A DNA stretch of 64,000 bases from Psilocybe cubensis (GCA_017499595.2 CM039001.1:434001-498000), one strand, 5' to 3'; counted from the first letter of the stretch, positions 3,095 through 62,457 are shown. Notes: generated by a model from the letters alone, not told the origin. Numbers and translations: made by a program.

Positions 3095-4768
3095 ATGCCT
3101 GTAGAGAAGTCTCCAGATAGCTTTACGTTTACCGTTGGAAAGCTGGGTACGCAGATTTACGTTGAATCCTGTTCGCATTAACTCAACGAAACGGAACATT
3201 TATAGACGCGGGAATGGCGGTATGCTGTGTACAACTCGTTACATTTGCAACGATTCTCATCATTCATCCTAGATTCTTCTCGGGGAGAGGGCGCACTTGA
3301 TTGAATTCCCGTCTATTCTTTTACCGCCTGGAGCGACGACAGGATCCATCGTTAACATTGCAGTGCACCAGAACCACGCCGAGGAGAAAAAGCGCGAGAC
3401 CGAATTTTGGTCTCTTCAGGAGGATATACTGAATCACTTTGGGCAGGAATCTCCTGAGCCACCAAAACTATCGGTGAGCAGTCTTACTTCTTTCTTTCCC
3501 TGACCTTAATCTTATACCTATTGCCAAAGGTTCGCAACATCACACAGACGTCGGTGACGCTGGAATGGCCACCTATCAAGCTGGCGACAGCCAAGCTTCG
3601 GTCTCTCGATATCTACAGAAATGGCGAACGGCTCTCTTCTGTCCCATCTCCTTTGACAAATACCTCGACGAAACATTCCGGAATGGACATCAACACCGAA
3701 TATTCGTTCCAACTCATTCTTCGCACTACAGCTGGAACATTCCCCTCGAACGTGCTTAAAGTCAAGACACACACTATGTCGGATACATCTGGAATTTCCG
3801 TATGCTTTGGGAATGTGCAGGACCCTGTCCTGCTGGAGAACGCAAAGTTAGCGTTGAGGGAGATGGGTGCGAAGTGGAGCGATACCATTCAAATTGATAC
3901 CTCGCACTTTGTGTGCACAACGCCAGCAGCTACCCCGACAGGTGCGAATGCAACTGGAAACGCGAGTAGTGCCCCGGGGGTTGCGTATCAGCGAGCTCTC
4001 CAGCTAAGTATACCTGTGGTGCAACCTCATTGGATCTTGGCGTGTCATGCAGAGAGGAGGTAAGTCATTCTCCTCTCTCAAAGTGGGTCTTATTTCTGAT
4101 TTGATGATAGAATGGTCCCTATTGCCTCGTTCTACCTTGGTGCAACAATTACCCCAACAACGGCCACCAGCTTTAACCGCCCGCAATCCATGTCTCAAGC
4201 GTCGATACCTCACACTCCATCAAGCCCTACTCCCAACTCGGGCAAGGGTAATCCAGCCTCGTATCGCGCTTCTATGCCACCTCCGTCAAGAGTACCAGAA
4301 ACCCCACCGGTTGCATCAGCATTTGTTAACCAACCTGCCCAGCGGCCCTTTGAGCCTACTTTGGAAGAAAGAGAGGACGACCTCGACGCGCACGATGTGA
4401 ATCTCGAGAGATCGACGAGTGTAGAGTCTAGCATTAGTTCAAACAAGGAAAAGAGGAAGAGCAGAATGGGGAGTATAAATAAAGCCTTCAAATTCCCACC
4501 CACCCCTACCACAGCTACGTCGAACACTGGAACTGCCGCTGAAGCTGCCCAAGAGAAGACTTCGCAATCTGCTCCTGCCGAAGATGGACCGGTCAAATCG
4601 GCTTCAGACGAAAGTAAAAATGAGAACAGGCGGTCTGTGGTCGACCCAGAGAACATTGAGGTGCCTGCACCCCCGCCGATGGAGAAGGAGAAGACTATGA
4701 GCCAAATCTCGTTGGATGATGATGGCGAGGACGAATTGGGTGATACCGTGGACATTCCTTTGAATTAA
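3095..4768 (+). CDS. CHS5: Chs5-like exomer subunit (CHS5_N + fibronectin III + BRCT, low-complexity tail)
   Basis: Spliced N-terminus TVGKL|DAGMA|ILLGERAHLIEFPSILLPPG; FN3 segment VRNITQTSVTLEW; BRCT segment DTSHFVCT...SIPVVQPHWILAC. ATG at 3095. Confidence 0.93.
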
Positions 4769-5096
4769 TGGGCTTTTTGGCTGTCGTTTTTGTTTCTTGT
4801 CTTAGATAGGATACCTTTTTTGTCTACGAGTAATATACCTACGCTTTGATCTAACTTTTACTCGACAAATGCAACTGCAAGACTAATGTCTGTCCAGGGG
4901 TTTGAAGAGCCCCTAAGCGGCGTATGTCATTGTCCGACCATAAGCAGTAATTCTTTCCCAGTCTCTAATTGGGAATCATGCGTCCAGAGCCCACTCCGAA
5001 GGTACACTCCCTTCCATGTTCACGTTGCCTGCACATCTGTAGAGATTCCCCTGTTGTCATTGTACAATATACTTATCTGGGACGACATATGCGACT

Positions 5097-8000
5097 ATGT
5101 CCTCGACTGAGACGTCAACAGGCGAGTCGCCTGTAAAACGCGAGGCAACGGGCACCCCATACGACGAGAAAGCGGACAACCATGTACCTTCGAGGCTCTC
5201 GGACAGTCCAACGCCCATGTCTGACTACGATGAGCAAGAATTAAGAAAGGAACACGAAGGCAAGAATGGCAAGGACGCGGAGTCGGATGAGAGTGAGGAA
5301 GAGGAAGATGATGAAGCAGAGTCCGAAGAGGAGGAAGACGAGGATGAGGATGATGAAGACGAAGAAGATGACGAGGAGCCCGCCTTGAAATACGAAAGGA
5401 TAACGGGAGAGATACCTGACCTGCTTAAGAAGGACTCTGCTTCTGCGCTTTGCGTGTCCAACAAATTGCTGGTACAATTGTTGCCATTTGCTTCGTACAG
5501 AGCTCTAAGTATATTACATTTCTTTACAGGCTATGGGCACTCATGCCGGTATCATTCACATTCTGGACATAACTGGAAAGCGGATAAAATCCTATAAGCC
5601 TCATCTGGCGTCTGTTGTAGATATCTCCATGGACGCGACGGCCGATTTCGTGGCTACAGCATCGATAGATGGTCAGTACCTCTTGCCCAGGGTGAGACGA
5701 TCGCGACATGTTTACACAGTTTGTGTCTAGGACAGGTCGTAGTCCGCTCTCTTTCGACACCAGAGCGATATTCATTTGACATGAAGAGGCCTATGCGAAC
5801 TGTGGCTATGGAACCTGATTTTGCGAAGAAAGGAACACGAGCATTTGTATGCGGTGGTTTATCTGGATCTCTGGTTTTGCGCGAAAAAGGCTGGCTAGGG
5901 CACAAGGAAACTTTGCTTCACTCGGGCGAAGGGCCGATCTGGCAGGTAAAATGGAAAGGGAGGCTTATAGCTTGGGCAAATGACAATGTATGTTCATATT
6001 TTCTTCCTCCTTTTCGCGTCCATCTACGTTACCAACCCTCCTTTTAACCTAGGGTGTCAAAATATACGACAACGTTTCTCAAACACGGATAGCCTTCATC
6101 GACCGACAGGCAGATAGCCCTCGTGCCGACCTATTTAAATGCACGCTTCATTGGCAAGACAACTCCACCCTCCTCATTGCATGGGCCAACTTCATCAAGG
6201 TTGCTCGAATACGAGAACGGCCACGGACCAACACAGCGCAAAATATTGCCAATGCACCACCTCTTATCGTCGAAGTCACGGCCGTGTTCCAACTTGACTG
6301 TATGGTATCAGGAATCGTCCCCCACCCCACCCCTGTCCCCGCTTCCATGATCATCGACGGACTCCCAACTTCTCTAAAACCTGATGGTTCGATTCAAACG
6401 CACCCTCAAACCCTTACCTCCTTTCTCATTGTGGCATACACGCCACCAGAAACCTTTGACGACACGGACGAAATCACCGACGACCGACGACGGCAGGCCC
6501 GCAAGGCGGCTGAACGCCCTGAAATGCGGATCATTTCTCGTGCGGGTGAAGAACTCGCCACGGACGCGCTTAGCGTGGCGGATTACCACCTGTGGGGGTG
6601 TAACGACTACACGGTGGTGGAGGTAGCGAGTTCAGATGATCCCTTGATTCGTGATGCCGATCGGTCCTATGTGGTGATGAGCCCGCGAGATCTTGTACAT
6701 GTTATGCCGCGAGATAAAAGGGACCATGTTGAGTGGTTGGTTGAGAGGCGACAGTATGAGGAGGCGTTGTCCGCCGTTGAAACGATTGAGGCGGAGGAAG
6801 CCGTCACGGGTTTTAAAGCCCCTGAAAGCCAGGGAAAGGCACATTTAACTTCACAGGATATTGGGCAGAGGTTTATTGAACATCTCGTACAGGAAGGTGC
6901 GTATTCTGTACCAACTCTTTTCTGCTTGCAGCTTAACAACGCTTTTCTACCCTGCTAGGCGACTTTGTCAAAGCCGCAAGACTGTGTCCCAAAGTTTGTG
7001 CCCAAGATGCCAAAAGATGGGAAGATTGGATATTTACTTTTGCGCATAGGAAACAACTCCACGTAGGTGTTCCTATTGAAATAGTTTTTTTTTTTTTTCA
7101 TCCTCTCCCAAACTTACGAAACCTTGTCAGGCAATTATCCCATACGTACCCAAAGAAAATCCGCGACTGGACCATGTCATTTATGAAATGATGCTCGCAG
7201 ATTTCTTGAAACACGATCGGAAGGTTTTTCTTTTCCTTGGATGACAATGCTAATCTATACATACTTATTTATGACTTTGATAGGCTCTTCTGCAAACAAT
7301 CAAAGATTGGCCTAGAGGACTCTATGATATATCAGCGGTCATTGTCGCCGTTCGTGCTGAACTTGACAGAACGGCATCAACGTCGTCAACAATATCGTCA
7401 AGCGGAGATTCGACTATTCTCATGGAATGTCTCGCCGAATTGTAACTTCCTCACTTTTTGTCAGACAAAACTAAGTAACTAATCACCGACTTACTTTAGG
7501 TACACCGCAAATCGTCAGCCCGGGAAGGCACTGCCATTTTACCTTCGCCTTCGCAAGTCCAACGTGTTCGATCTCATTCGCGACAACAATCTTTTTACGG
7601 ACGTGCAAGATCAGGTGTTATTGTTAGTCGAGTTCGACCACGAGTTGATTCAAAAGCGTAAAGAAAGTTTGGGCAAGGGCGAACAGCCTGATGTCAACGT
7701 TCAGAGTGACGCCATCACTCTGCTCGTGGACAACTTACACTCCATCCCAGTGCGTTTTCACATATTGTCATCTGTATTTATGGCTAAATAATTATTATTC
7801 TATAGATTAGCAGAGTGGTTCAGCAGCTAAAGCAGAGACCTTACTACTTGTTCCTTTATCTGGATGCCCTTGTACACAAGGATGCACAGTTGGTCACAGA
7901 TTTTGCGGATTTGCAGGTAAACCTTGGTTCGAGCGATCTAAAATAGTTTCCTTGTTTACCCATGCCAATTTTTCTACAGGTCAAAATGTATGCGGAGTTC

Positions 8001-9003
8001 GCGACATCTCGTCTTATTGATTTCCTGAGAGCCAGCAGTTCATACAATCTTGAGATGGTATGTTAGGTGTTCGGTTCTTCCTCGTATCCTACTCTGACTT
8101 CTCTAACTTCAATCTTCAAAACCAGGCCTACAAAGAATGTCAAGAACGCGATCTAGTTCCCGAAATGGTTTTCTTGTTAGGACGAATGGGCAATAACAAG
8201 AAGGCTCTCAATCTGATCATTGAACGACTTGGCGATGTCCATCGAGCTATCGATTTTGCAAAAGAGCAAAGTGATGACGATCTATGGGAGGATTTGCTAA
8301 AATATTCCGAGACTCGACCAGGTGAATTGATTCTGCCAAATTTGTGTCTACCCCAACTTGTCCTAATACAACACCCCTAGCATTCATACGAGGTCTTCTA
8401 GAGAACGTTGGGGTTGAAATCAGTCCTATTAGACTGATTCGGCGGATTAAGAACGGACTGGAGATCCCTGGGTTGAAGGAAGCGTTGATCAAGATTTTGC
8501 AGGATTTCCATCTGCAGATATCACTTCTGGAGGGATGTCAGACAATCCTGGACGGTGATAGTTCAGACTTGTCGAGGAAGCTGCAGAGAAACCAGTCGAG
8601 CGGGTTCTTCCTATCTTGTGAGTCAATTAGTTCTGTTTCAAGTTCTCTCATTTACTAATGCCATCTGAATAAAGCCACATCTAAATGTACACTCTGCCTG
8701 CGTCCTCTACAAGACTCCCCGCCATCGCTTATGTTCCTTTTCCTATGTCGACACGTTGTTCATTCCACTTGTGTCAGTGGCGCGGAAGATCTTCCACTTC
8801 CAACGCCAGATCCATACTTCTCCTCAACCTCCGATATAGATGGTGGAATGTCGCGGGGGATTAGTGGTGCCATCGCATTGTGAGTCGCATTTTTCCAGTT
8901 GTCAGTGTTCTCTGTATTGATAAATGACTCAAGCGAAACGATGATAAGATCGCGGTTACGTCGTGGATGTCCGGTTTGTCATAAGAACGGCGAAGGACAT
9001 TAG
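5097..9003 (+). CDS. VPS41: Vps41, HOPS complex subunit (acidic N-terminus, WD40, clathrin-repeat region, C-terminal RING-like)
   Basis: EEPALKYERI after a D/E tract; HSGEGPIWQVKW...IAWAND; LVPEMVFLLGRMGNNKKAL; DDDLWEDLLKYS; GLEIPGLKEALIKILQDF; terminal CxxC..CxH..H..C..CPVC; stop TAG at 9001-9003; many GT-AG introns. Confidence 0.95.
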
Positions 9004-9401
9004 ATCTCTATGGGCCATTTAGTTGTCATTCTCTTTCATTCATTTCATTCACTTCGATTTGTCCCTGTACCTTTACTCATATACCCGCTGGTCTATGTTG
9101 GCTTAATCTTTCACCTGACATTACCCATGGTGTTTGATTTGATGTGACGCCATTAAGCTTGCCCTAAACACATTCACGTGTTACTTTATACCGCGAACGC
9201 GCTTCGGTGTCTGTTTGTAGGTCTTTCATGCAAGACCACGATATGAATGGTCTTTTGGTTGATCGGTGGATCAGACCAGATTTTCCACCATCAACAGAAA
9301 GACTCTCTAATAAAACGTTTTACTTGACAATCATACCTCCAGGTTTTGTGGCTACTATTATTGAAATCAGCCATCCCAGGCTGATGGACCATCGGTGATC
9401 T

Positions 9402-10320
9402 CTATATGGTGGACTCGGCGACAGGTACTATAATCAGAAATTCATGCCCGTCGAGAAGATCTCCCAAACACCACCTTCCTGCGTCAACGTATGATTTCAA
9501 GGTGCTCAATGGCTCCTCATGGTCGACGTAAAAGTCGGTAAATGCAGATGAAACCACGCCACGTGTAGCCAGGTCCTTTTCGAATATGCTTCCTTTCAAA
9601 TGCGAAGAAGCGTCTCTGATATATGGGACCGGCGAGGCTTTCATAATCTCCCTGGCGTTTTTAGAAATGAAAGAAAGGTCGAGCTCTCCAGGAGAGAGGT
9701 CTTCAATATTCCATATAAACGTCAGATGTGTATATCATTGTAAAATGTTAAACAGCATTTACAGGAAAATTTGGCGAGAGTGTTTATTGAGGCTGGGTGG
9801 GTAGATGCAAGACCGATGGCATCTATTGGCGCATTTATATCGCAGAACAGCGGATTCAGTTTCAAGTTTTGAAGAAGAAGCGTCGCAATGTAACGTCTCC
9901 TAAAATTCTTATGGACGACTAGCTGTGTGACCCATGCAGCATGGCACCCTCACAAAGCAAAATCTGGTTATTACAGAAATCTGAATAAATCATACACGAA
10001 GTAACCCACCAGGTTTATACTCCCATACAGTAGCAAACGCTTGTCCAATAAGGTCGTCACCTCGTTTACATCGGCTCACCACCGTGTTGGCAGGATCGCT
10101 AATTAATTGGGATTTTAGTCTTGCAGGGCTAATCGATACGTGTTTTCCCGCTGGTGTGATAGAATAATGAGCATGATCAAGCTTCGAGTGTGTGACATGT
10201 CATATATTCTCCGTACCTTTGGTGCCCATTTGAGAAGACCAGACACCATAATGGTCGCTGAAGAGCTTGGCACATTCTTTGAGCATTTCATCGGTGAAGT
10301 TCCTGCAGTTCACTGTATCG
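9402..10320 (-). CDS. GNAT-fold acyltransferase-like conserved fungal protein (start codon uncertain, possibly 10426)
   Basis: Manually spliced exons read EMLKECAKLFSDHYGVW, IGQAFATVWEY, CWVTQLVVHKNFRRRYIATLLLQ (GNAT motif-A-like) and TDFYVDHEEPL...LGDLLDGHEFL. Confidence 0.65.
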
Positions 10321-11137
10321 AATACCAGAGAGTCAGAGATGTGCATATCTGTGGCAGGCGTATTTTTAAAGGTCGAAGTTTGGTAGAATCCAAGTAGAAA
10401 AGATGAAGATGACTATCGATCGGCATGCTTGAGTGTCGTAAATGGATCGCATTTAGCCGTGTGGCTTGCGACTCCGACTGAAAAGTATTTGATTCAAAGT
10501 TTCGTTACATTTGACCTATTTGTACTACATTCGATATATTTACATAGACTTTGAATAAACAAGTGATGGAACTTTAGAGGGTTTTGACTCCTACTACTCT
10601 CTAGGAATTGATAACATTTGGATTACCCATGATTGCAATCCTGTCAATGACCTAAGTCGACAATAGCTCACTGTGAGTAAGCTGCCGAAAACACAAATAG
10701 CACTTACTAACCTCTGATTCGAATTAGCTTTAGTAAGTTCCTGGTAAGTTCCCAAAACGGCTCCACATGTTCCTTGATACCTTTGTCTGCGTTTGATCTA
10801 AAAATAAACAGGCCACCCAAGGCCATTGCATCGTGATGCCATTATTTCTGCTATAGATATGGCCATCCGATTGAAGGTTGGGCCCTATATTCGTAGCGTG
10901 CCACATATCAACAACCATCAAACCTCCAACGACACTTTTAATATATATAAACTAGTGTCTTTGGTTTGATTGTAAGCCACACCATATCAGCTGCTCTTCA
11001 GGACACTCTGCAGCTTCGACTTCAGCGAATAGTTTCATTATCGTGACCGATTTCTCTTGTCTGTCGTCTTCGTTTCCCCTGCTATATCTCTGAATTCATA
11101 CTACACCTAGGAAATTGCATTTTCATCTGAACGAGAG

Positions 11138-11701
11138 ATGGAGAACCTTTCAAGACTTGTTAATCGTTTTCTTTCTCACCTTGGGTTTTCCGTCCCCGCG
11201 TACGAGGGTTGCTCTCTTCGCAATCTATCTGCGGCCAACAAGATTATCTACGATTTTCTTGCACTTATGCAATCAGACGAGGACATTGCTTACGGTGCAT
11301 TACTGCTACTTCAGCGATTCAAGGACATAACCCACAAAAAATCTTCTACTCAGGACGGCCACGTATATTTTATGGCTGCCTATACGCTTTCTGCGGGCAC
11401 ATTGCTTGCGGCAGAGAGATCGGCATCCATTCGATTCTCAACTCAGTCGTTCACCCTCACACATCCCTATACACCTTGGATTGAAGTTGAAAAGGCTCGG
11501 TTAAGCATCACTCATACTCTCACAAACAACATAGCTTTCGACGACAAACTGCCACTCTTTAAATTGGTCATCCAAAGAGACTTTAGATCGGACCCAAGCC
11601 AACAACTTCCTCCATATCCTAGAAATCTTGTAACAAACCATCCACAGTTTCTAACATCCACAAATTCTCGATGTAACCCAGGCTATAACGCGTACCAGTA
11701 G
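11138..11701 (+). CDS. Diverged cyclin-fold (Pcl/Pho80-like) protein 1, intronless, 187 aa
   Basis: IAYGALLLLQRFK...DGHVYFMAAYTLS...FKLVIQRDF...PPYP resembles the fungal Pcl-type cyclin box and is paralogous to 12445-13134 and 56236-56823; TATA-like TATATATAAA near 10942. Confidence 0.65.
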   Translation: MENLSRLVNRFLSHLGFSVPAYEGCSLRNLSAANKIIYDFLALMQSDEDIAYGALLLLQRFKDITHKKSSTQDGHVYFMAAYTLSAGTLLAAERSASIRFSTQSFTLTHPYTPWIEVEKARLSITHTLTNNIAFDDKLPLFKLVIQRDFRSDPSQQLPPYPRNLVTNHPQFLTSTNSRCNPGYNAYQ

Positions 11702-12444
11702 GCGGTGTAGGCTTCTTGACCTCAGTTTGTATTCTAAAAAAGCTCCCCAGTTAATAATTGGCTTGGAACTACGGAATATTGATGTTATAGAAAAATTTTC
11801 TTAATAAATTGAACTGATATTTGTGCATTTTCTGTCTTCTTCATACTCTGTCCCTCCTTCAAGTCTATTCGATTTAAGCCATCTAGTGCCACTAAGTCAA
11901 CAAAGCACGTGTTTCATCACCTGTGCGTTCCCACGCTTGTGGACAGGGCGTAGTTCTGGTATAATGATGTCCAGTTGTCCTTTGAACCTTCTTGTCTAAA
12001 AAGAATAATCCAGACACGCGTTTTACCCTCGTAAAAGTGTTGACAAATTCCACCTCGCATTGAATTTAATTGAAGTATGCTAGTAGTGACATGACGGAGT
12101 GCCTTCAACAATGGCCAAGTTGGGCCATGATCATTGGGCACAAAGGGTGGTTAGAGATTGCCGCTTACCTCATTGGTCAAATTCAATGTTTGGCCCATCA
12201 TTGGCCCTGGGCCATGCCATTCCGGGTATACTCAACGTCGCTTTGGCAGTGGGAAGGTACCGTGACTGTCGGCTACAATGGGATGTAATGCGTGCTGTTA
12301 ATCCTAAATCGGACGCAGTGAATCCAGTCAAAGCCAGCCTGGTGGCGTTCAGTCTTTAAAAGCAACTTTTTTCCACATAGTGCAAAGGTGTCATTACAGA
12401 AATTTCCCTCAATCCTCAACTTGAACCCTTTTTGATCCACCACC

Positions 12445-13134
12445 ATGACCTCACAGTCAGTCAGTTCGCCACTTATTGAACAGGCAACATTCGTCCACGA
12501 AGCCAAACCGCTGGTCCTCAAGCCCTCTAATCGCCGCCCACAAAGAGCTGTTCGTACCAAGAAACCTTTGAAAGTCAGCGTCAGACAGAAGGGCATCAAC
12601 AAACGGACAAAAGCCAGCAATATTATGCCCAAAGACGATACCTCCAAGGCCGTCCGGATTGCGGTGGTGGTTGTAAACTACCTTGATACAGACCCAGAAT
12701 TCAAGGATAAATCCCAACAACAGACGCACCTCCTTTCCCGAATTTCAAACCTCAGCAAAGAAATCAGGGCGTGTACAAAGGGTCTGAAGGATGACTCCTG
12801 GATCATTTACAATGCTTTGATTTTACTCTTACGACTCAAAGTCAACAAACCTGGTCAACAACTCGGAGATGGTCTAGATCTATTTTTCACGGCTTACATT
12901 TTGTCTTTCAAATACCTGGCGGCTGGATATGAAGAGCTCCGATGGACCTTGGAGTCCTGGAAAATACTCACCGGCAGCAGACACGAGCTCAAGGAGATGG
13001 CCAAAATGGACTTAGCCATGTGTAAGGATCTTAACTGGAACCTTGGTTCCCAGACAAAACTTCAGGAATTCCGGAAGAAAATCGAGATCGACTATGACAA
13101 AGGTCTAGAGGTGTCTATAGAGAGTTACATATAG
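12445..13134 (+). CDS. Diverged cyclin-fold (Pcl/Pho80-like) protein 2, intronless, 229 aa
   Basis: IIYNALILLLRLK...DGLDLFFTAYILSFKYL...SWKIL...LKEMAKMDLAMCKDLNWNL...FRKKIEIDY follows the cyclin-box helix pattern (AL.LL.RLK / LF..A.IL..K / SW / ME..M...L.W.L). Confidence 0.75.
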   Translation: MTSQSVSSPLIEQATFVHEAKPLVLKPSNRRPQRAVRTKKPLKVSVRQKGINKRTKASNIMPKDDTSKAVRIAVVVVNYLDTDPEFKDKSQQQTHLLSRISNLSKEIRACTKGLKDDSWIIYNALILLLRLKVNKPGQQLGDGLDLFFTAYILSFKYLAAGYEELRWTLESWKILTGSRHELKEMAKMDLAMCKDLNWNLGSQTKLQEFRKKIEIDYDKGLEVSIESYI

Positions 13135-13514
13135 CTCTCATTTCTCTTGCAGAACCTTTCCAGATACCCATTCAACGATCATCTTTTCCCGTGCTTGGAC
13201 TGCCGTCACAATATTAGACAGGGCCTGTACTCAACAACTCGTCGGCATTGGTGTCTAATCGACTCGTCTTAGGCAGACTACTCTCACAAGCATTGCCTGC
13301 TTTTGATAAGACAGACGTCTTCTTTCTTCACCCCTTTCCATTAGATTCAATTGTTTCTTGGTTAATTCAGTGGTTGGCAGTGGTGGATGATCCCTTAATT
13401 TACAACACGCTTAGACGATAATGTGATGTAGTTTTTACTCTGACTTCGTTATTACAGACGAGGAACTAGTATTTTATATATGTGATAATAATTGAATAGT
13501 GACCTATCAAGTTA

Positions 13515-13632
13515 ACGCGGTATGGAAATATCGGTCACCAATATGAATATATACACGCGACAATACGCGACAATTACAAACGCGGTCATGTGGTGTAATA
13601 TATTGTAATATTACGCGTTGCGCGTGACGCGT
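13515..13632. promoter_or_regulatory. Cluster of ACGCG (MCB-like) motifs upstream of FunK1 copy 1
   Basis: Seven ACGCG cores (13515, 13555, 13565, 13580, 13613, 13621 on minus, 13627), two of them perfect ACGCGT, in AT-rich intergenic DNA. Confidence 0.4.
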
Positions 13633-13969
13633 ACTTTCAAAGCTGGTTCAACAAGACCGGGATCTCCGGGCCTTATTTACAATCTCACTGACCACCTATT
13701 TAGGACAAATCTGTGCCTAGATGGTTAAAAATAATTGACGGTCCAACACTTGAACTTGAACTAACACGACGCGGGCACTTGACGAGCCTTTGATAAGCTC
13801 TAATCCCCCAAGTTGACCTTCTCCCATATCCTGTCCTCCTCTACATCGAGTACACAGCTCGCTGCACATACCTCTCCCACCTATCTGAAGGACGTGACAC
13901 GCTCTATAAGTCACTCCCGATTCTTCACCACTTGCAATCGACCAGTTAGTCGTAGTTAAGTCACTGGCG

Positions 13970-16516
13970 ATGTCTACAGTCCCGCTGTCTCCTCACTGGG
14001 AAGATATCGTCGATGAATCGCCCCATGCACCAAGAATATTTCCGTCCTATGCTTACCTTCATATCGACACCTTCCTTCACGCGTCTAAGTCCTATGATAA
14101 AAAGACCAAAGAATGGACACGAATGATCACAGTGGCCAATGCGTCGACGCTGGTCAATGCGCTCTTCATGCCACTCGAAGATATCATAAACGAGATTCTG
14201 TGTCACTTTCAAGAAAAAGATGCACTAGTTCGAAATGAAATAATACAAACCCACGAAAATAGATTATCTGTCATTGAGGACGACGACGTCGAAGAAGAAG
14301 AATACTCACGCCGGGTTTCCGCGAACAAGATATCCCCAGACATGGCTATTATGGGTAGAGGAGCAAACTTTTTCATTCATGATAAATATCCAACCGTACC
14401 GGCCTATACGCACTGTCTCGTTCCAGTGGAGGTGAAGCGGGAGAGCGATTTTGACTATGAAGCCGCTGTCACCCAGGTGCAACGATACGCGAGGTGAGGC
14501 CTCGCGTCCCTTGATATATCTTTAAGTACTTAACATGGCTCATAGGAAATGCTTTGCTCATCAGCCCCATCGACGATGGGTCCCTACAGTCATCTTCACG
14601 GAGATGAATGCGCATCTGGTGATTCACGACCGTTCTGGAACCTTAACATTTGACCGCCCAATCAACTACCACAAAGATCCATTAGCATTTGTCCGCCTTC
14701 TTTTGGGCGTCTCCACCGCCGTAGATGATCTTAGGAAGTCTTCGTTTGATCCAAGAATATATTGGGAAGAGCCTAGAGGCTGGCCAATAATCATAGTTAT
14801 GCGAATCGAGGGTGTCTCCGACTCTCAGAAAACGACATCTGAGTCGCAGCTTGTGTATTCGGAATACCAAACTGCAGGGAAGGTTCCGATGGTCAGACCA
14901 TTTGATCCTCGAGGCACAGTCTGCTGGAGAGCTTTACCAGTTTCCGCCGAGCATATGAACCTCATTGGACCAGTCCTTATTAAGGATTCCTGGAGAGACG
15001 CTAAGCGGCAAAGCGAATGGGAGCTTTTGGAAGAGGTCAAAGGCCTTGACGGTGTAGGCCAGATGGTGACTTACGAGGAAGACGTCGACTTTTCTATTTC
15101 TCAATTCCGCAATCATATCACTCAGGGACTGTATGGGGAGCGCAATCCGTACAGAAAAGACCGCATTTTTACTCGGCTAGTCCTCAAACACTATGGACGA
15201 TCTGTCAAATATTTTAGCAGCAAATTACAGCTACTTCATGCGCTGTATGATGCTGTCGCTGGTAAGATACGATTATTTGCCTCTGAACCAATATAATTTG
15301 TTGACCTTGATATTCATACAGGCCACAAACGAATGTGGCTCAAGGGAGTTCTACATCGAGATATCAGTCTGGAAAACATTTTATTTGGGCAGGAGGGGGC
15401 TCAAGTGGGAAATCGCGGGATTTTAATTGATCTCGATTCAGCGATCAAGGTGAATGACAGTCAGAGGTCGAATACTGCTACCCGATCGGGGCGCCTTCGA
15501 CCGGTAAGCAATCTTTGTTATGCTTCTTCAAGTATGGCTACAAACGTAGCTGACTTTATTCAAAGGGAACATGCACATACCAATCCATCGCTCTTCTCTA
15601 TGGTCCACAATGGGATATTTCTGGTGTGGAATCACCCCCTCAAGATCACCTTGATGACCTCGAGTCTTTCTTCTACGTGTTAGCCTGGATTTGCATGAGA
15701 TATAATGGACCCGGAATCAAAGCTCAGAACACCGCCAAATATCTCGATAAATGGGACTCTTCTAATACAGCTCTTTGCGCAGAAATTAAGGAAGGGCTTC
15801 TGTCTGCTCCATTGGCGTATCTACAACCCTACTTTGCTAAGGATAAAATCTTCCTCCGGCTTGTTGCAGACCTTGCGAAGGTTTGCGTGCGCCATGTTAC
15901 GGAAAAACTGAAAGTTGTCGACTCTATGGGAGAATTTCCTGATCTTGTGGAGATCCATCAGGCTCAGGTCGCTTCGTCTGGTAAAGACCATGATGAATTC
16001 TTGGCAATCATCGGCAAAGCAATTAACGCCTTAGAAAAGGCGACCAAGGCACAAAAACCCTTCAAGGCGTCACGTAATACTCAGCCTGCCACAACAGCCC
16101 AAGTTGTGGCCGGCGGATCAGGTGTTACACCGACAGAAGAACCTACGAAATTTGGCGCTGCTCTGAAGCCAGCGGAGAAAAAGAAAGAATCGTTGGCCGT
16201 CTTCAAAAAATCTAATGATCACAACTTGAACGCTTCGGTGGCACCAGTGACTCAACGTCCGGAGCCATCTCCTCTAGGAGACTGCTCCAACGTAACACCA
16301 CAAACCCCATCAAAAAAGGAGGTCGTTTCTGCCAGTACATCTAATATCGCGCATAAATTGTCAAAAGCTAGAGAGAAGAAGCGAAAGATCACGATGGACG
16401 ACTCGGATGCTGAAGATAGCAAATTGGAAGAAGTCCAGAAACGTTCCAAGGTCAACCACTTGAAGGAAAACAGGTCAGACTATAAAGGCGAATGTTCTTC
16501 GGGATCTGCGAAGTGA
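13970..16516 (+). CDS. FunK1-type fungal-specific protein kinase, copy 1; introns 14494-14545, 15262-15321, 15504-15565
   Basis: RGTVCW, VLIKDSW, VLHRDISLENIL, GILIDLD, GTCTYQSIALL, DHLDDLESFFYVLAWIC; frame stays open across three canonical introns; N-terminal PD...EVK...QxxxY motif. Confidence 0.92.
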
Positions 16517-17012
16517 TCGTAGCCCTGCCACTTTCATGTTACGCTCACTGAGTATGCTATTCATTGCTTTTCTGTCGCTTACTATTCAACAACACCATGT
16601 AAAGTTTGTAACATTTTTTGATATCTCAACGTTCCATTACACACCCATAGGCCTATTAATCAAATTACGAGTGATGTCCAATCGACAACCGTGAGCCTCC
16701 TAGCATGAACAAAAACCCCATGAAGCCAAATTACGTGAAGTCTTAAGCAAGTTAAATCGGAGATCTGTTAAATTGAACCCAGATTCGTTGTGTTTGTTAC
16801 AAACTAAAGCCGATGGCTTTTTAAACAACAAGTTTTCATTGGCTGCCCCCTTCCTGCGCGTTAAACTTAGCCCAACCTAGTTCGCCACCGCAACGACTCA
16901 ATGAAACGTTCTAAAATTCATAAACTTCTTAATCTCTTTTCTTTCTACTGCCCCGAAGTCGTCCTTCTCACTTTCCCTTAGCTATCCACTTGAAAGTGCG
17001 CGGTATCGTTGG

Positions 17013-38594: not shown

Positions 38595-40285
38595 TCACTT
38601 TGCTTCTTCGGTCTCTGGATTCTCAATAGGATGAGATTCGTAATGGCCATCCTCAAAGTCCCTTACAAGACTTGCCCACCGACTGGGATTCGATGCTACA
38701 TGCTCTTCGTTTACGATGGACACAACATGGGGCCGAGGAGGGGCAAATTGGATTACAGAGACTCGCGACCTGTTAGAATCCTTGGTAGCGCTCCGTAGTT
38801 CCAAGATCAAGCGTGATATCATAGCAGATGATAGGATCAATGTATAGTCGTTGAATATCGTGCTGTATGCACCCTATATGAAAGAAGGTATCCTTAGTAT
38901 GATATTTGTGCACAGTGGAATTGTGTATCCAAACCTGAGGGAGCTAGGAAATTGATGTGAGAACTAATGATAGGGGTTTCACTTTGACTGAGTGGTTGCT
39001 CACGTAAAAAGTAATCAAGGCCGCTGTTTGAAGCCCAGTGATGATTCTGTATGGCATTGAGAATCTGATGCTCAATATGCTCGGATCAACTGCTTACATG
39101 AAATACAGAGTTCCTTGAACGGGGTTTCAGTGTCTGCAAGTGTCGCTAGGGAGACGAACAGGATACTAACCGTTTCTTACCACAATCATAGCAAGTTTTG
39201 AATGACTCCCCAGTCTTTTCAGTCCCAACAATCTGACATTAGAAACTAGCTTGTATAGAATCAATGCAGTGGCGGTGACTTCAAATACAATCAGGGAGAT
39301 AAAAGTTGATGCAAACGCTGATTTAAACAATGAGCATAACCCGAGCGTTTCTGATTAAATATATTTACCCCTGAAAAACATATCAGAAAGTGAGTGCATA
39401 AAAATGAGTTAAGAAAAAATATCATACGGAGGATATGCTGATTGAGAACATGAAAGTTCTTGAATTTGTTCCTATAGATACCTCCGTTCTGCAAAGTCAC
39501 TTCGACGATAGGAACCGTGCTCACGATTATGAATGCAGTACAGACAAGGCCAATCACGATTAGTATCCCTGTGTTAAGCATCGCTTTGTCCGTAACGGCA
39601 TAGACACGCAAGATGAAGGATACTTGAAATTCAAAAACCCATTATTAGCGCATTATACTTTGAAAGGGAGGTTTAGACAACGCACTGATAACCGCCTCTC
39701 TGGCCAGCAGCAAAGATATCACTGAGGTCACCTTTATCCATGTATCACAACTATGCATGGCGTCAACTTGAGTCTCTGCAAAAGCAGTGCTTCAAGAGCG
39801 TTAAAATCTTACTAGATGTCAGCGGCAACCATGTGCCCGATATTTAGAAAACAGTGAGAAAAAGAAGATTGTAAGAACCCACCTGGTCTATCTGGCTTGG
39901 GTCGGAGAACAGGAAAAATATTTGCCTCGCAATTACTGGATATCGCGCAGCGTAGTAAATAAGGCTAGATGGGCGAAACTTTTCCTTCCAGATGTATTCC
40001 TTCTCGCGATCAAGGTTTATTATGGTGTCATAGGCCCAAAGTGCTGTTAGAGGAGAACCGAAAACGCGTTTAATATCATGAGTAGGAAAAAGCATTTGTT
40101 CAGTCAATCGCTTACTGATTCGGGAACACGTTCCATACATATCTATCTGTCTTGAGAAGAGTAAACCTGTAGTCAGATTGTCATTCTTTCAGTCATTCCA
40201 TATGCAAAACATACGCATGTCGTTGTTCGTGAAGCCTTGCCCAGTCAGATGCTACTGGTATCAAGGATGGTAAAGTGGTAGCCAT
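38595..40285 (-). CDS. DUF6533-like multi-pass membrane protein, paralog A
   Basis: ALWAYDTIINLDREKEYIWKEKFRPSSLIYYAARYP; LRVYAV; several hydrophobic exons; ILSSAMISRLILELRS; many short introns. Ends approximate. Confidence 0.75.
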
Positions 40286-42093: not shown

Positions 42094-43878
42094 TTATTTT
42101 GATTCGACTCCTATACTGGATTCTACTCGTGGTATTGCCCTATGAATCAAGCTCTCTGCGTGTAAAGGCCGAGGATCTCTTTGATCAGATTGTTTTAGAC
42201 TCCTGGATAAATTTGGAAATGCGTTCACATCTTCAAAATCTTTGACAAGGCTCGTCCAGCGGCTTGTTGTCGACCCGCTTAATTGCCCGTTAGAAACAGC
42301 GTTACTGGGTGAGGCCGAGAAATGTAATGAGGAGCTGTGTGTATGACCCGTCGCCCTACTTGCTTCTGCAGAGAGGCTTCTCAACTCCAAAATAAATCGC
42401 GATATCAGAGTAGATGAGACGATCAAAGTATAATCGTTAAGGATCGTGCTGTAGAGTCCCTATCATTCAATGTCATTATGGTCGATGCTAAAGCGGAGGT
42501 CAAATTGATACAAGCCTGTGGGAGCTGTATAATTGAAATACGTCAATTCACGTCACAGTGGAAAGATTTCTGACTTACATAGTACAGAATGACCGCCCCG
42601 GATTGGATTCCAGTGATTATTCTAAGCGATATCAGAATCTGTCAGGTTGGAGGGTGCCACAAAGTGTCTCACTCACACGAAATATAGAGTGCCTTAAAAG
42701 ATTTCTATTGTTGAACAACAGATGATAGAGGTATCATTTTTCCTGGAAGACGTACCATTCCGTATGATCATTGAAACCAGACTTTCACTCCCCAGACTCT
42801 TCAACCCCTGCAATCGAACGACTGCTATCAGTTTCCACAATATCAGCGAAGTCGCGACGACGTCGAAGACAATTAGAGATATGAAGGTCATGACGAATGC
42901 TGGAACAAGCGTCAAAATATGAATCAAAACCGGTCCCGGAGCCTGAATCTCATTGGCTTTATTTACCTCTGCAAAATTAATTCAGAGGTCGCCGGATGAT
43001 TATCAGATTGAGAAATGGGACTTACAGAGGGTTCGCAGACTGCGTGCAAGAAAGCTGCTTGATTTGCACCTGTTGCTGATGTCACTGGATAGGTTGGATT
43101 TAGAAATGAATTATGCTTACTATGTCCAGAGCAGTGGATAAAACACCAAGTACAATTAGAATCCCAATGAAGAACACCGCTCCGTTTGTGACAGCGTGAA
43201 CGCGCAGGATAAACGATACTTGCATTGATATCAGCCCAAGTTTGAATGTCAAGCGCAGCAGCTAAGAAGAGCTCACCTACTATGGCTATCCTCGGTATCA
43301 GAAACGACACTGTCGATGTGAACTTTAACCATGCATCGCAGCTACCCTCCAGTCAATTTTTAATACTCCCGACAGGTATTATTCAGGTCTCACTACAGAA
43401 ATAACACGAACCTTCGGGTGAGAATCGAGGGTAGGATGACAATAGGTGATTACACCCACCTGGTTTATCTGAGTCCGACTGGAGAACAGAAAGAATATTT
43501 GCCTCGCAATTACTGGGTATCGAGCAGCGTAGTAGAGCAGACTGGACAGGCGCAGCCCTTCCTTCCAAATGTACTGTTGTTCACGGTCGAGGTTTATAAT
43601 TATGTCGTATGCCCACAGTGCTAAGTATGACACCAATCGAACAGAACATGGATGTTATATCACCACTCAACTCATGGGTTTAAGTAGTGGAAGATTATGC
43701 TTACTGATACGAGAGCATGTTGCGTATGTGTCGATCTGGCTTGAACGGTCAGGGCAACAATGTCAAATGTCGCAGCAGCTATATTGTGCGTCGGAAAAAG
43801 AACTTACTTCTTCCTTTGGGCGTGCAATGTAGTGGCTGCACGCGCTGCCAGACCCAAGGCGGTCTGAATGGACGGCAT
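42094..43878 (-). CDS. DUF6533-like multi-pass membrane protein, paralog B
   Basis: ALWAYDIIINLDREQQYIWKEGLRLSSLLYYAARYP; SLIVFDVVATSLILWKL; LVSMIIRNG; IVSSTLISRFILELRS. Ends approximate. Confidence 0.75.
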
Positions 43879-46300: not shown

Positions 46301-46556
46301 GACTGAGATTGTGGGTCAAGACAGAGGAGACCGAGTACATGGCGGTCACTGTTGCGCTCAACAGTCGACATCACAGAACCCTTGATTAGACTTGAGCTTG
46401 CCCTAAAGTCGGCCACCGGGATTCCGGGGCGGGTTAACGATCGAAATACTTACACGTGATCACTACGCACAGACTTTCGTCGAGGAGGAACGGCTGGTTA
46501 CACCCCCACCTTTTCCTCGCTGACCTCGACAACGGAGGCCCCGTTCTCATTTCCCA

Positions 46557-53137: not shown

Positions 53138-55707
53138 CTAGGAACGGCGGACTTGTTGCTGCTGCGTAGTTGTTCGACGCGTGGTCCGGGAAGCAGACGC
53201 CTCATGGCTACCTCTGGATCGCTTCTTATCGCCTTGTTCGTCCAAATGAGACTCAACTATCTTTCGTTTCTTCTCTCCACCATGAAGAGATGCGTCAAGG
53301 TTGGAAGTGGAAGTGGAGGCATCCCGATTTTTAGATAGCGTTGAACGTGCTGGTACGATATCGTTGCGTTCGTTGGCAGGACCTTCAATAGGAGCAGCGT
53401 CACTGGACGGGGAAAGCACGCGTTCAGGAGGAAGCTGTTCCAGTGCTACTATGGCGGCCTTGATGATTTCCAAAAATTTATCATGGTCTTTTCCTGAAGA
53501 TCCGTTTTCCGATGCATACACAGTTTTCAAGTCTGGAAAACTTCCGCTCTCTTCTTCGACTTCATACTTCGCGATAACGTGCGTCTCACATAATCGCGCG
53601 AGGCCCTTGAGGAGTTTACGGAAAACCTCGTCACTCTTGAAATATGGTTGAATTTTTGACAAAGGTGCTGTAAGAAAGTCCCTCTTGGCTGTAGCGCAAA
53701 TTTCAGGGTCATTGTCCTCCCACTTTTCGAGGTGATGGACTACAATGCAATTTCCCGGCCCATTGTACTTCATGCATATCCATGATAACACGTAGAGAAA
53801 AGACTCAAGGTCATCAAGATGGTCCTGCGGCGGTATGTTTACAGTTGGTGAGGCCTGTGCCCATCCAGCACTTTTAAGGACTGCAACAGATTGGAACGCA
53901 CGCGTTCCCTATTGATAATATATATGAGCGGACGCTTCATGAATGTCCAAATAAAGGGTACATACCGTTCTGAATTGACTGCCGGACAGATTGGTTTCAC
54001 GATCCACCTTTATAGCCATGTCCAGGTCTATCAACACTCCACGGTTCCCTGGTTCCGCGTTTGGTTTCCCTAAAAGAATATTTTCAAGACTGATATCACG
54101 GTGCAAAATTCCTTTCTGCCAAATATTTTTGTGGCCTGATCATAAAAAAAAAAGGTTTAGAAATTTAAATCTGAAATACAGAAATGACTATTTACCTGCG
54201 ACCGAGTCGTAGAATGCGTGCAATAACTCCAACTTTGTTTGAAAATATTTGATGGATCGTCCATAAGCTTCAAGGACGATTCGGCAAAAAATACGATCGG
54301 CGGTATATGGTCGACTGTTGGTATACAATCCGTTGACGACATGGTTTCTGAATTGGGATATTGGATATTCGGTATCATCCTCATAGGCGACCATTTGACC
54401 AACTCCAGCCAGGCCCTTGACAATTTTTAGTAGCTCCCATTCGTTTTGGCGTCCAGACGACCGCCATGAATCTTTTATAAGGACTGCACTAACAGTGCCA
54501 TTCGGCTGAGGAGGGCTCACTTGCTCAGCATTCCAACACACAGTGCCTCTGCCACGAGCAGATCTACGAATGAAAGGTGTTCCCACCACCTGATAAACGT
54601 AGGAGGCACGCGAAGTGGTCGTCAATCTCAGTGACCGTGCGTGCTCTTTTGGGGTCGAAACAGTGATTTGAGGCCAGTCCCCACCATGCTCCCACTTGAT
54701 TCGCGTGTCAAATGCAGAGATTTTTTGATCCTGTTCAATGGAAGAGATACCAAGGACAATCCGAACCAGAGTCACAGGATCGGTATGATAGTTGATGCTC
54801 GAATCGACGCGAAGCACTCCTGAACGGTCATGAATATTCAGATAGGCATGATTTTCTGTCAAGACGACTACAGGAACATAGCGCCGATGAGGTTGCTGGA
54901 TGAAACACTGTCTTTTTATACGTAGATAAAGTGAGTAAGTAGAAGTGTAGGAATGCATGCCTAGAATACCTCGCATATATCCCAATCTGCTGTGTGATTT
55001 CCTTCTTGTTTGCCTTGAATGTAGCCTCTAATTTGACCTCAAGGGGAGCTAGACAATGTGAATATTCGGAGCGCTCGGCAATGGCAGGATTCATAAAAAA
55101 TCTCGATGTTCTGCCCATAATAGCCAGGTCCGGCGATGACTTGGGGGGAATAACTGGCGTTGTTTGCCCATCTGCTCCTACTTGTAGAATAGTTATCCCG
55201 TCTTCGACATGGGTAATTCGTTTTTTGTAAGTTTCATCTATCCATCTCAATTTTGGGCCACCCTTGTCAAAATAATCAAAAATTGACTGAATTATTTTGC
55301 TCAGAGGTGTATAGAGTAATTCTTCCTGCGTCACACCAGTGACATTTTTTAGAGGAGTCCATCCTTTAGCCTGGTTATCGTAGAGACTGCAGTCCGCAAG
55401 GAATTTGGAGATTGGAAGCGTGTTATATGAAGCAAAGACCTTGGATACAGGTGTTGATTTGTCGACAGTGCTTCCGGAAAGCTCTGCAGCTATCGCTGAG
55501 CTCATAGCGTCGACAGTGAGATCAGGCTGTACTGAATGTGACGATGATTTAACCAGTGTCGCGGGGCCAATACGTGCACGATGCGGTAAAAAGAGGGGCA
55601 CGTATAACAGATACCTCAGACTCGTAGGTAGAGTTTGAATTGAGTGAACGCGCTTCTCTCGATTGCGTAACTTGGTTCAAATTTCGAGGCCTTGAACTTT
55701 TCGACAT
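53138..55707 (-). CDS. FunK1-type fungal-specific protein kinase, copy 2; introns 54912-54969, 54136-54195, 53909-53965 (start uncertain: 55707 or about 55505)
   Basis: GRGTVCW, VLIKDSW, HRDISLENILL, GVLIDLD, GTRAFQSVAVL, DHLDDLESFLYVLSWIC; same three intron positions as copy 1; PD...EVK...QxxxY N-terminal motif. Confidence 0.92.
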
Positions 55708-61095: not shown

Positions 61096-61801
61096 GGTAC
61101 AAGCAGAGCAAGAGTTGGTCGATAATCGATTCTCTAAGAGACTACTGATCGTCGCAGAACAGAAAAGGTGGTTTGCTTGAATGTGTTTGTTATAAACCCG
61201 GCGCGCATATTGGCCAAAGTGTTCGCATGGGTAAAAGTCTCGACGGAATCGGAATCAGGCTGATGATAACATGATCGCCTTCTTTTTCCGGCCCCACAAG
61301 ATAGCTCCACAAAACGATTCACAGGACTGATACTTTGGATAAATTTGTTTCGGCACTGTGGGGGCTCGGAGAATGTGGCAAACCTAGTTTTGGGCACGAG
61401 CCGATAGTGCGTGGGGTAAGATAAGGACAGGTGCGAGCATGGACATTGGCGCTGTGATTATTACATCGCGATGTATATGTGGAAAAAGTCGCAACGAGGA
61501 AGGCGCGTGTTGGTGGTGCTCCACAATTTTGTTTACAGGAATCACGATAGTCCGGCTTTGATGGCCATATGAGACGCTTCTGGTCAACAGTGGCGTACAA
61601 TTAGGCTATACTGTATATTCGGGTACCAAAGTAAAAGAAATATGCCATAGGAAAAGAAATGAGTTAATGAGTATTAATGAGCAAAGGGCGGTGGCAGTCC
61701 ACTTTCTAAACGAATTGTTCGGCGGAGGATTTAGTCGGAGATTCGGAGGTTGAATCGGAGCTTTTCTAAATACGCGGTCACCTGATTTACCTTGCAAATG
61801 C

Positions 61802-62457
61802 TCTACCGCAAAATCATCTCGATGATCTGGAATCATTCTTTTATGTGATAGTCTGGATTTCCATCCATCATGACGGCCCAGGAAATTGTCCAACGTCAAA
61901 CAAAGCTCGTTGCGGCGTTAGTTCTAAGTGGAACCAAGCCTTGCCCCGTGATTGCTTCAGAGAAAAAATCCATTTCATGGAACATCCAGGCTTCCTGCAA
62001 ATTCAGCCGTACTTCAGGGAAGACGAGATTTTTTGCACTATGCTGGAGAATCTGGGGTACCTGTGCCAGGACCGCTATAGCGACAAGGTGGATATCCTTC
62101 ACCAGCTGGACAAGGCCATTTATGATGCTCGCATTAAGAGTTACAAATTGGAGGTTTCAGAATCAGCAGCGTCTGGACAGTGGAAAGGATCATGATGAGT
62201 TCTTGCTCATCGTTAAGACGGCCATCGATGCGCTTGAACAAGAAGAGGCCGAGGAACAGAAACACGCTGCTGTGACTCCGTTAGGGGACCGCTCCAACGT
62301 CGAGCCCGACACACCATCAAAAACCGAGAAATTTTGCAGCACTGTAGAAATTAAGAAACGAAAGCTCGATAGCGTTGATGGGGAGGAGAAAGCGGACCAG
62401 AAGCGTGCGAAGGCCCGCCGCGAGTCAAATGAAAATGACCCTGAACAAGGTCTTTGA
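61802..62457 (+). pseudogene. FunK1 kinase remnant (C-lobe and tail only, frameshifted)
   Basis: PQNHLDDLESFFYVIVWI..HDGPG..QPYFREDEIF in one frame, then SGKDHDEFL..AIDALE..PLGDRSNV.P.TPSK..KKRKL in another; no HRD/DLD exons recognised upstream. Confidence 0.8.

Follow-up and report, generated by a model that had tools for sequence, protein, structure and literature searches.

Why does a gene for a small cyclin-like protein stand upstream of a FunK1 kinase gene, on the same strand, at two sites of one Psilocybe cubensis chromosome? FunK1 kinases, which have links to mushroom development, rank with the largest kinase expansions specific to fungi; to our knowledge nothing is known about how they are regulated, and we know of no cyclin-fold protein that regulates a kinase of this type. 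If a cyclin-fold partner did regulate FunK1, it would provide a first handle on the control of this family and would widen the range of cyclin-box targets. A reading of the sequence alone had proposed that the two genes were copied as a unit and form a functional module. Here, we follow this proposal through the window, that is, the whole 64,000-nucleotide stretch of DNA that was analysed.

A two-gene unit present in two copies

Copy 1 lies on the plus strand. Its first ORF, c1 (11138-11701, 187 aa), is the most diverged of the cyclin-box ORFs and is found 743 bp 5′ of c2 (12445-13134, 229 aa), which is itself 835 bp 5′ of the start of the kinase gene K1 (JR316_0004251 in the source; 13970..16516, 790 aa). 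The four exons of this single gene (13970-14493, 14546-15261, 15322-15503 and 15566-16516, with splice sites read from the sequence) account for the ORFs at 13970, 14535, 15333 and 15695, and its spliced translation equals P0123 (790 aa) letter for letter. The same order and orientation recur on the minus strand, where c3 (JR316_0004263 in the source; 56823-56236, 195 aa) lies 528 bp 5′ of K2 (JR316_0004262 in the source; 53138..55707, 768 aa); by tblastn, the K2 protein P0122 maps to 55707-53141. All five genes are intact, and in both copies the distance from the small gene, c2 or c3, to the FunK1 gene that follows it on the same strand is 0.5-0.8 kb. Our ORF calls agree with the sequence-only reading on the position of the small ORFs and on c2 preceding a FunK1 gene, and its repeated cassette is indeed there. 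Its description of the small ORFs as intronless is true of the ORFs as read: c2 and the deposited protein P0004 have the same sequence, and the deposited model of c3 (P0131, 206 aa) has 194 residues identical to the ORF and departs from it only at the C-terminal end. As for c1, the extra and more diverged cyclin-box gene that copy 1 carries upstream of c2, the protein collection searched holds no entry for the exact ORF; it shares 64% identity with P0006 (199 aa), which comes from a different assembly.

Judged by Pfam score and catalytic residues, K1 and K2 are both clear members of the FunK1 (Pkinase_fungal) family. PF17667 is matched with 214 bits by K1 (E 3.8e-63) and with 223.9 bits by K2 (E 3.6e-66), the gathering cut-off being 24.1, and the six FunK1 sequences compared all have the kinase residues K363, E374, H467-R468-D469, N474 and D492/D494 (K2 numbering). 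The two kinases are 46.9% identical over 706 aligned residues. According to the available text of one study, the family is expanded, numerous and developmentally regulated in Agaricomycetes (10.1101/2025.09.11.675558). The window also contains a frameshifted FunK1 C-terminal fragment (61770..62457, plus strand), a relic with tblastn and BLASTP matches to the K1/K2 C-termini in two frames and with no adjoining cyclin-like ORF.

How did the two copies arise? In an all-against-all BLASTP of the 432 stop-to-stop ORFs of the window, similarity between the two sites is confined to c2/c3 and the kinase exons, the FunK1 relic at 61770-62457 being matched as well. The small proteins are related at 25% identity over 130 aa for c2 and c3 (E 3e-9) and with E 5e-6 for c1 and c3; the comparison of c1 with c2 is not significant (E 9.5), so that these two are linked only via c3 or through a profile. 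A tblastn search with c1-c3 (E ≤ 0.01) found no further copy in the window. In the kinase tree, (K1,(K2,P0128)) with support 99/99, no paralogue is closer to K1 than K2 is, or to K2 than K1, and in the cyclin tree c2 and P0005 join c3, P0003 and P0002 with support 95/92, c1 taking no firm place in it; P0003 and P0128 are likely orthologues of c3 and K2, respectively. On this comparison of sequences, the trees fit a single duplication of the cyclin-plus-kinase unit. The pair was copied as a unit, as had been supposed, since no ORFs other than the cyclin-like and kinase ones are similar between the sites and the two trees agree: the two-gene unit was duplicated once and inverted, and its copies, c2 followed by K1 and c3 followed by K2, now lie ~40 kb apart. 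Both sit inside an ordinary housekeeping region of the chromosome, with Dicer, Vps41, histidine phosphatase, P450, CDK8-like kinase, histone deacetylase and permease genes as neighbours; no terminal repeats flank either cassette and no transposon context was seen.

Cyclin identity of the small proteins

The motif that had been noticed in the three small ORFs can be read from their translations and alignment, which give 18 columns invariant across c1, c2 and c3, including Y52, A54, L55, L58, R60, D73, G74, F78, A81, Y82, S85, F141 and D148 (c1 numbering). Is this motif a cyclin box of the fungal Pcl/Pho80 kind? At Pfam thresholds the answer is negative, because none of the three proteins reaches the gathering cut-offs of Cyclin_N (PF00134) or PF08613: c2 matches Cyclin_N directly with E 0.068 and 13.3 bits, under the 23-bit cut-off, and c1 and c3 match no Pfam family at E ≤ 1. 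Profile comparisons, in contrast, point to homology with accepted cyclins. A profile built from five family members retrieved 121 proteins at E ≤ 1e-3 from 1.84 billion representative proteins, with Cyclin_N in 113 of them and PF08613 in 94, the diverged family itself accounting for only 6 representatives in the whole collection. When the seven-member family was compared by hhalign with 44 canonical Agaricomycete Pcl/Pho80-like cyclins, the probability was 99.4% (E 3.1e-21, 162 columns), and a canonical-cyclin HMM of 44 sequences scores all seven members at 20-75 bits (c1 52.7, c2 75 and c3 39.6). A language-model search with c3 returned cyclin families in 24 of its 30 matches.

The AlphaFold2 model of c3, whose input alignment was made up mostly of true cyclins, is all-helical (pLDDT 73.4), and c3 is predicted from it to have the five-helix cyclin-box fold. 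In VIA-align, the best ten rows for this model are all cyclins (Z 8.0-9.2), headed by cyclin Y (9r2n_D, Z 9.2), cyclin B1 (8.6) and Pho80 (8.3, 142 residues aligned), with p25 (Z 7.7), Pcl10 (Z 7.4) and Spy1 (Z 7.1) among further rows, bearing in mind that Z values of this size can be common among helical proteins. Foldseek gave no match at E ≤ 0.001. Columns conserved in all seven family members map to predicted cyclin-box helices. Taken at the level of profiles, HMM scores and structural matches, the evidence supports a place for the small proteins among the fungal Pcl/Pho80-type cyclins, as diverged members with a single cyclin box. Two positions that are invariant in canonical cyclins, K128 and E157 (P0007 numbering), and that we take to be CDK contacts, read K/D in c2 and P0005, R/V in c3, G/R in c1 and T/R in P0006; the first is K in P0002 and P0003 as well, the second lying outside their alignment. 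These alterations make a classical CDK partnership doubtful for c1 and c3.

Possible meanings of the adjacency to FunK1

Does the arrangement recur elsewhere? A fourth paralogue, JR316_0004197 (P0002), is the closest to c3 outside the window and lies on the same 4.15-Mb contig; word-limited protein searches by locus tag revealed no K1/K2-clade kinase at a neighbouring tag among the 6 + 3 matches listed. Enrichment beside FunK1 genes, for which the sequence-only reading had proposed a test, did not appear among canonical relatives, whose 80 metagenome loci contain 1 FunK1 in 378 kb of flank, a rate presumably close to the FunK1 background; the figure is 1 of 19 for loci having at least 3 kb downstream. 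In this one case, on metagenome contig L062, a canonical cyclin is followed by a FunK1 gene 1.7 kb downstream on the same strand. Fusions of cyclin and kinase were not found, PF17667 occurring in 0 of the 121 profile matches. Also, the literature library searched yielded no paper linking FunK1 to a cyclin partner, in line with the sequence-only reading, to which no such partner was known. Every cyclin-FunK1 adjacency in the window traces to one ancestral arrangement and hence to one independent origin. Because all the linkage comes from one duplication, its retention does not support the proposal that the two proteins act together, and the 6 representatives, set against the large FunK1 family, leave room for no more than an arrangement private to a single small clade.

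We give a probability of about one half (0.5) to the reading that the small proteins are lineage-specific kinase-regulating subunits and that their adjacency to FunK1 is one copied neighbourhood, passively kept. The small proteins would still keep the cyclin-box fold and would act like their parent Pcl/Pho80 family, whose known partner is a Pho85-type CDK; one ancestral neighbourhood of cyclin and FunK1 would have been copied and afterwards passively retained, and K1 and K2, in which all catalytic residues are kept, are probably active on their own. Counter to the idea of passive neighbours, order, strand and spacing (835 and 528 bp) are kept, and both members are intact in both copies despite 47% identity between K1 and K2 and 25% between c2 and c3. 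The best-established role of the cyclin box is kinase binding, and this role, together with deep divergence of intact genes and the kept arrangement, mildly favours co-function.

Could each cyclin-like protein be a private subunit that activates or inhibits the FunK1 kinase encoded downstream, the pair co-evolving and being kept together? We regard this as possible, though tentative. Two deeply diverged copies with the same order, strand and spacing and with all genes intact speak for it, and so do the matching shapes of the cyclin and kinase trees (c2/K1 versus c3/K2, P0003 and P0128 being likely orthologues), the departure of the small proteins from the consensus of canonical cyclins, which a switch of partner would lead one to expect, their faster evolution (56% identity for c3-P0003 versus 81% for K2-P0128, a comparison valid if P0003 and P0128 come from one organism) and the same gene order on the unrelated contig L062. 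However, the adjacency has a single independent origin and duplication as a unit gives matching trees automatically, P0002 is without a K1/K2-type partner among the matches listed, canonical relatives show 1 FunK1 in 378 kb of flank, the 121 profile matches include no kinase fusion, and only 6 family representatives stand against a large FunK1 family. It is rather doubtful that this clade switched partner from CDK to the adjacent FunK1, which would make it the first case of a cyclin-type subunit regulating a non-CDK, fungal-specific kinase. With a PD-(D/E)XK-like domain placed in that kinase as in SPOK killers, the pair might then work as a nuclease-kinase switch under regulation, or as a toxin-antidote system of two genes. 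It is unlikely that the small ORFs are decaying relics, functionless cyclin paralogues open by chance: although none reaches the Pfam cyclin cut-offs, the canonical K/E positions are lost in c1 and c3, the exact c1 ORF is missing from the protein collection and divergence is fast, the frames stay open over 187-229 codons, full-length relatives (P0003, P0005 and P0006) exist at 53-64% identity, the positions conserved in seven members fall on predicted cyclin-box helices and both listed c2 SNPs are synonymous.

Very unlikely, in our judgement, is a conflict cassette in which FunK1 would be a toxin or self-protecting killer, PD-(D/E)XK-like plus kinase, and the cyclin-like protein its antidote or specificity factor. 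The available text on SPOK describes a PD-(D/E)XK killing domain together with a kinase resistance domain (PMC6660238). All 6 FunK1 proteins compared keep the PD...ExK residues P163, D164, E194 and K196 (K2 numbering), an Atlas model of K1 residues 4-260 has the PDDEXK_12 (PF20516) cluster as structural neighbour (TM 0.57), and the nearest named Atlas cluster by features is SPOK2_N, at a low score (0.76). Nevertheless, the N-terminal part of K1/K2 matches no nuclease family by sequence at E ≤ 10, and K2's own predicted model is too poor to be informative (pLDDT 50 overall and <50 across most of residues 119-371); the label nuclease-kinase, as given to these proteins before, is a lead carried by the motif and one predicted-structure neighbour. 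Strain comparison adds nothing to the antidote-toxin, allorecognition or drive ideas. Cassette 1 is present in 3 of 3 DNA runs from two other studies at ~99% identity or more, one contig from those runs covering 20 kb with 82 differences, which makes a locus that is hypervariable or differs by presence/absence less likely. In one run the cassette piece does hold more SNPs (38 differences in 12615-16953) than neighbouring pieces (6-19 per 1.6-5.6 kb), but the pattern is not a diversifying one, with 8 nonsynonymous and 8 synonymous changes in K1 and 0 and 2 in c2 among the 40 of 102 differences listed. Presence/absence, strong allelic divergence and a mobile or repeat-rich setting, the hallmarks of SPOK-type or toxin-antidote loci, were not found in these runs or around the cassettes, and a numerous, developmentally regulated FunK1 family, as portrayed in the available text of 10.1101/2025.09.11.675558, suits ordinary signalling.

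At present, a lineage-restricted, fast-evolving offshoot of the Pcl/Pho80 cyclins that Pfam misses, and a clean case of a two-gene unit duplicated and then retained, are secure results. The pairs c2-K1 and c3-K2 form a compact and directly testable set for cognate versus non-cognate binding.

Comparison with known systems

The SPOK spore killers of Podospora combine a PD-(D/E)XK nuclease and a kinase in one protein, as the available text describes them (PMC6660238), and K1/K2 may have the same domain order, with PD...ExK N-terminal to the kinase, a likeness for which the Atlas matches are weak leads. SPOK acts as a single gene without a partner; K1/K2 have no sequence match to nuclease families (E ≤ 10), and the cassette shows no presence/absence polymorphism between strains and no mobile context (three runs, two studies). 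The small proteins resemble the Pho80/Pcl cyclins (PF08613; reference structures 2PK9 for Pho85-Pho80 and 4KRD for Pho85-Pcl10) in their small size, single cyclin box and extra flanking helices, in their profile homology to the Agaricomycete branch and in the Z values of the c3 model (8.3 with Pho80 and 7.4 with Pcl10). They differ from them in falling below Pfam cut-offs, in the altered K128/E157 of c3 and c1, in having only 6 representatives and in that their genes adjoin FunK1 kinases and not a CDK. Cyclin Y, the partner of CDK16, is the best structural match of the c3 model, and p25 and Spy1 match too. The activators p25/p35 (with CDK5) and Spy1/RINGO (with CDK2), which resemble cyclins little or not at all in sequence, demonstrate that kinase binding and regulation can outlast strong divergence of the cyclin fold; the partners in these systems, including that of cyclin Y, are all CDKs. 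On the kinase side, K1 and K2 are no different from other FunK1 (PF17667) proteins, and the undescribed part of the arrangement is the cyclin-like neighbour upstream.

Two linked pairs of small genes and FunK1 kinases

Small ORFs and FunK1 (PF17667) kinase genes lie linked at two sites. On the forward strand, the ORFs c1 (11138-11701, 187 aa) and c2 (12445-13134, 229 aa) precede K1 (JR316_0004251, 13970-16516), a four-exon FunK1 gene whose splice sites were read and whose spliced translation matches the 790-aa protein P0123 exactly. On the reverse strand, c3 (JR316_0004263, 56823-56236, 195 aa) is followed by the FunK1 gene K2 (JR316_0004262, 55707-53138; protein P0122, 768 aa). PF17667 membership is strong for both kinases. 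Translation of the ORFs placed the three small frames where the sequence-only reading had put them, recovered its motif in all three proteins, with 18 invariant columns in the alignment, and bore out the order of small ORF then kinase at both sites (c2 then K1, cassette 1; c3 then K2, cassette 2). By BLASTP, c2 resembles c3 (E 3e-9) and so does c1 (E 5e-6), and direct comparison of c1 with c2 gave no significant similarity. When all 432 ORFs of the window were compared with one another, the cyclin-like and kinase ORFs were the sole similarity between the two sites, and no direct or inverted repeats were found flanking either cassette.

The setting is ordinary. Neighbours of the cassettes include a Dicer-like gene with Dicer_dimer and RNase III domains (1-2847), a Vps41-like gene (5000-10400), a histidine phosphatase, a P450, a CDK8-like kinase, a histone deacetylase and a permease, and an FG-repeat nucleoporin-like ORF (63152-64000) occupies the window end. 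The CDK-type gene (44789-46315, minus strand, with introns; Pkinase E 1e-35) has motifs resembling CDK8/Srb10, and its position between the cassettes is probably a coincidence. Other duplications occur nearby: a multi-exon DUF6533 gene is repeated in tandem (38598-40188 and 42097-43654, minus strand; 49-80% identity per exon), as are two dual-specificity-phosphatase ORFs (60007-60348 and 60714-61067, minus strand; 44% identical). The upstream phosphatase copy keeps the HCxxGxxRS active-site motif, and the other, which reads HS... there, may be catalytically dead. At 61770-62457 (plus strand) lies a FunK1 relic, a frameshifted C-terminal fragment nearest to K1 and K2 in the conserved C-terminal helices, with neither an N-terminal part nor an adjoining cyclin-like ORF.

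Cyclin-box identity of the small proteins

Are the small proteins cyclins? We conclude that c1-c3 are genuine proteins with a single cyclin box, strongly diverged from the Agaricomycete Pcl/Pho80-like (canonical) cyclins that gave rise to them, because profile methods are clear though direct Pfam scanning fails; their cyclin-box identity is secure. A narrow profile of c1, c2, c3 and two relatives, searched against 1.84 billion representative proteins at E <= 1e-3, returned 121 matches, only 6 of them from the close family; Cyclin_N was present in 113 and the Pho80-type Cyclin domain in 94, and neither PF17667 nor any other family besides the cyclin ones appeared among them. When the seven-member family was aligned by hhalign with 44 canonical matches, the probability was 99.4% (E 3.1e-21, 162 columns), and an HMM of those 44 cyclins gave every family member 20-75 bits. 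A language-model atlas queried with c3 placed 24 of 30 matches in cyclin families, the top match being an unnamed cluster.

The cyclin-box likeness claimed from sequence alone thus stood in the profile search, in hhalign and in VIA-align, but not in the direct Pfam scan, where c2 reached only 13.3 bits against Cyclin_N and c1 and c3 matched no family, nor in Foldseek, where the c3 model had no match at E <= 0.001 and cyclin Y rows had probabilities of 0.69-0.75. That AlphaFold2 model (pLDDT 73.4) was built from an input alignment of mostly true cyclins. In VIA-align its top ten rows were all cyclins (cyclin Y Z 9.2, cyclin B1 8.6, Pho80 8.3, with Pcl10 lower in the list at 7.4), scores of 9.2 and below not being high among helical proteins. 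Searching PDB sequences with the narrow profile yielded a chance match only, to a thymidylate kinase (E 0.46). At K128 and E157 (P0007 numbering), invariant in canonical cyclins and presumably CDK contacts, the residues are K and D in c2, R and V in c3, and G and R in c1.

Joint duplication, divergence and linkage elsewhere

The proposal that the pair was duplicated as a unit fits both gene trees as well as the restricted similarity between the sites. In the cyclin tree, c2 and its relative P0005 are sister to c3, P0003 and P0002 (support 95/92, with a long-branch warning), while the kinase tree reads (P. cyanescens P0124,(K1,(K2,P0128))), with supports of 100/99, 99/99 and 91/95, and makes K1 and K2 mutual closest paralogues. 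Together the trees match the prediction for duplication of a single cyclin-plus-kinase unit, and we regard the origin of both cassettes from one such event as secure. The position of c1 is less simple: with P0006 it falls amid canonical cyclins in the free tree, as an independent recruit would, but a single clade of all seven sequences is compatible with the data (AU test, p 0.146), and because of this result we do not claim an independent origin for c1. Since P0005 and P0006 are both given a longest contig of 5290 bases, the c1-c2 tandem may be conserved, with the two genes adjacent in another taxon; the kinase search found no kinase fragment from a contig of that length. The nearest relative of c3, P0002 (JR316_0004197, 58% identical), lies about 54 locus tags before K1 and is a fourth P. 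cubensis paralogue of the small cyclin-like genes. No third P. cubensis kinase of the K1/K2 type that might adjoin it was found in word-limited searches of deposited gene models (K2 against longer proteins, 6 matches; K1 against shorter ones, 3).

The most likely reading, to which we give a probability of about one half, is that the cassettes are co-duplicated neighbours whose small proteins are putative lineage-specific Pcl-type regulators. A dedicated cyclin-FunK1 module, with which the joint duplication is also consistent, is a distinctly less probable reading. The evidence points to no general rule of cyclin-FunK1 adjacency: a FunK1 gene was present in one of 80 metagenome loci encoding canonical cyclin relatives (378 kb of flank searched), the same case being the only one among the 19 loci whose downstream flank reaches 3 kb or more. 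That contig (L062) encodes a canonical Pcl-like cyclin (3097-4518, Cyclin_N E 9e-8) and, 1.7 kb further downstream in the same orientation, a FunK1 ORF (6245-7204, PF17667 E 8e-24), the sole such arrangement among the 80. A kinase considered as a second FunK1 neighbour, on contig L075, reads as a casein kinase I. None of the 121 profile matches was a cyclin-FunK1 fusion, and a metagenome search with the c3 trio gave 376 pattern matches and no relatives.

The small ORFs might instead be relics, which we consider unlikely. Full-length relatives exist in other assemblies (c1-P0006 64%, c2-P0005 53% and c3-P0003 56% identical); at 53-64%, against 81% for K2 and its relative P0128, the small proteins diverge faster than the kinase (for c3 and K2, provided that P0003 and P0128 share a source organism), yet their frames are open. 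Less likely still is a conflict cassette, for which the order of domains in FunK1, discussed below, would speak. The suggestion of an allorecognition or drive element did not hold up, the pattern being unlike allorecognition or presence/absence drive loci: cassette 1 is present in DNA contigs of all three runs compared (two other studies), and among the differences listed (40 of 102) those in K1 divide equally into 8 nonsynonymous and 8 synonymous, the 2 in c2 are both synonymous, and c1 has none at all. A single contig across the 20 kb compared carries 82 differences; one run shows 38 in the piece 12615-16953 and 6-19 in the adjoining pieces, which are 1.6-5.6 kb long. Contigs of two runs from one other study (X8, X9) lack three bases in K1 exon 1, at 14237, with the reading frame kept. 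These changes indicate mildly relaxed constraint on K1. Run X13, RNA by guess, has spliced contigs over 5128-~10400 and 16865-~24300 and none over 11003-16338, and is uninformative on expression.

The N-terminal part of FunK1 and SPOK killers

A PD...ExK motif, formed by P163, D164, E194 and K196 (K2 numbering), precedes the kinase core and is invariant in six FunK1 proteins; in K1 and K2 it lies within the N-terminal parts (13970-14900 and 55707-54700). The kinase catalytic residues are all common to the six as well. An atlas model of K1 residues 4-260 compares with a PDDEXK_12 cluster at TM 0.57, and the nearest named cluster by features is SPOK2_N, at a low score of 0.76. By sequence, no nuclease family matched the N-terminal part, and the full-length K2 model (pLDDT 50) was too poor for use. 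The literature searched held no link of FunK1 to a nuclease domain or to SPOK, nor, as the sequence-only reading had supposed, to a cyclin partner. SPOK killers combine a PD-(D/E)XK killing domain with a kinase resistance domain, as described in PMC6660238. FunK1 proteins are alike in domain order, with the PD...ExK motif preceding the kinase core, a resemblance that we offer as a lead rather than a finding.
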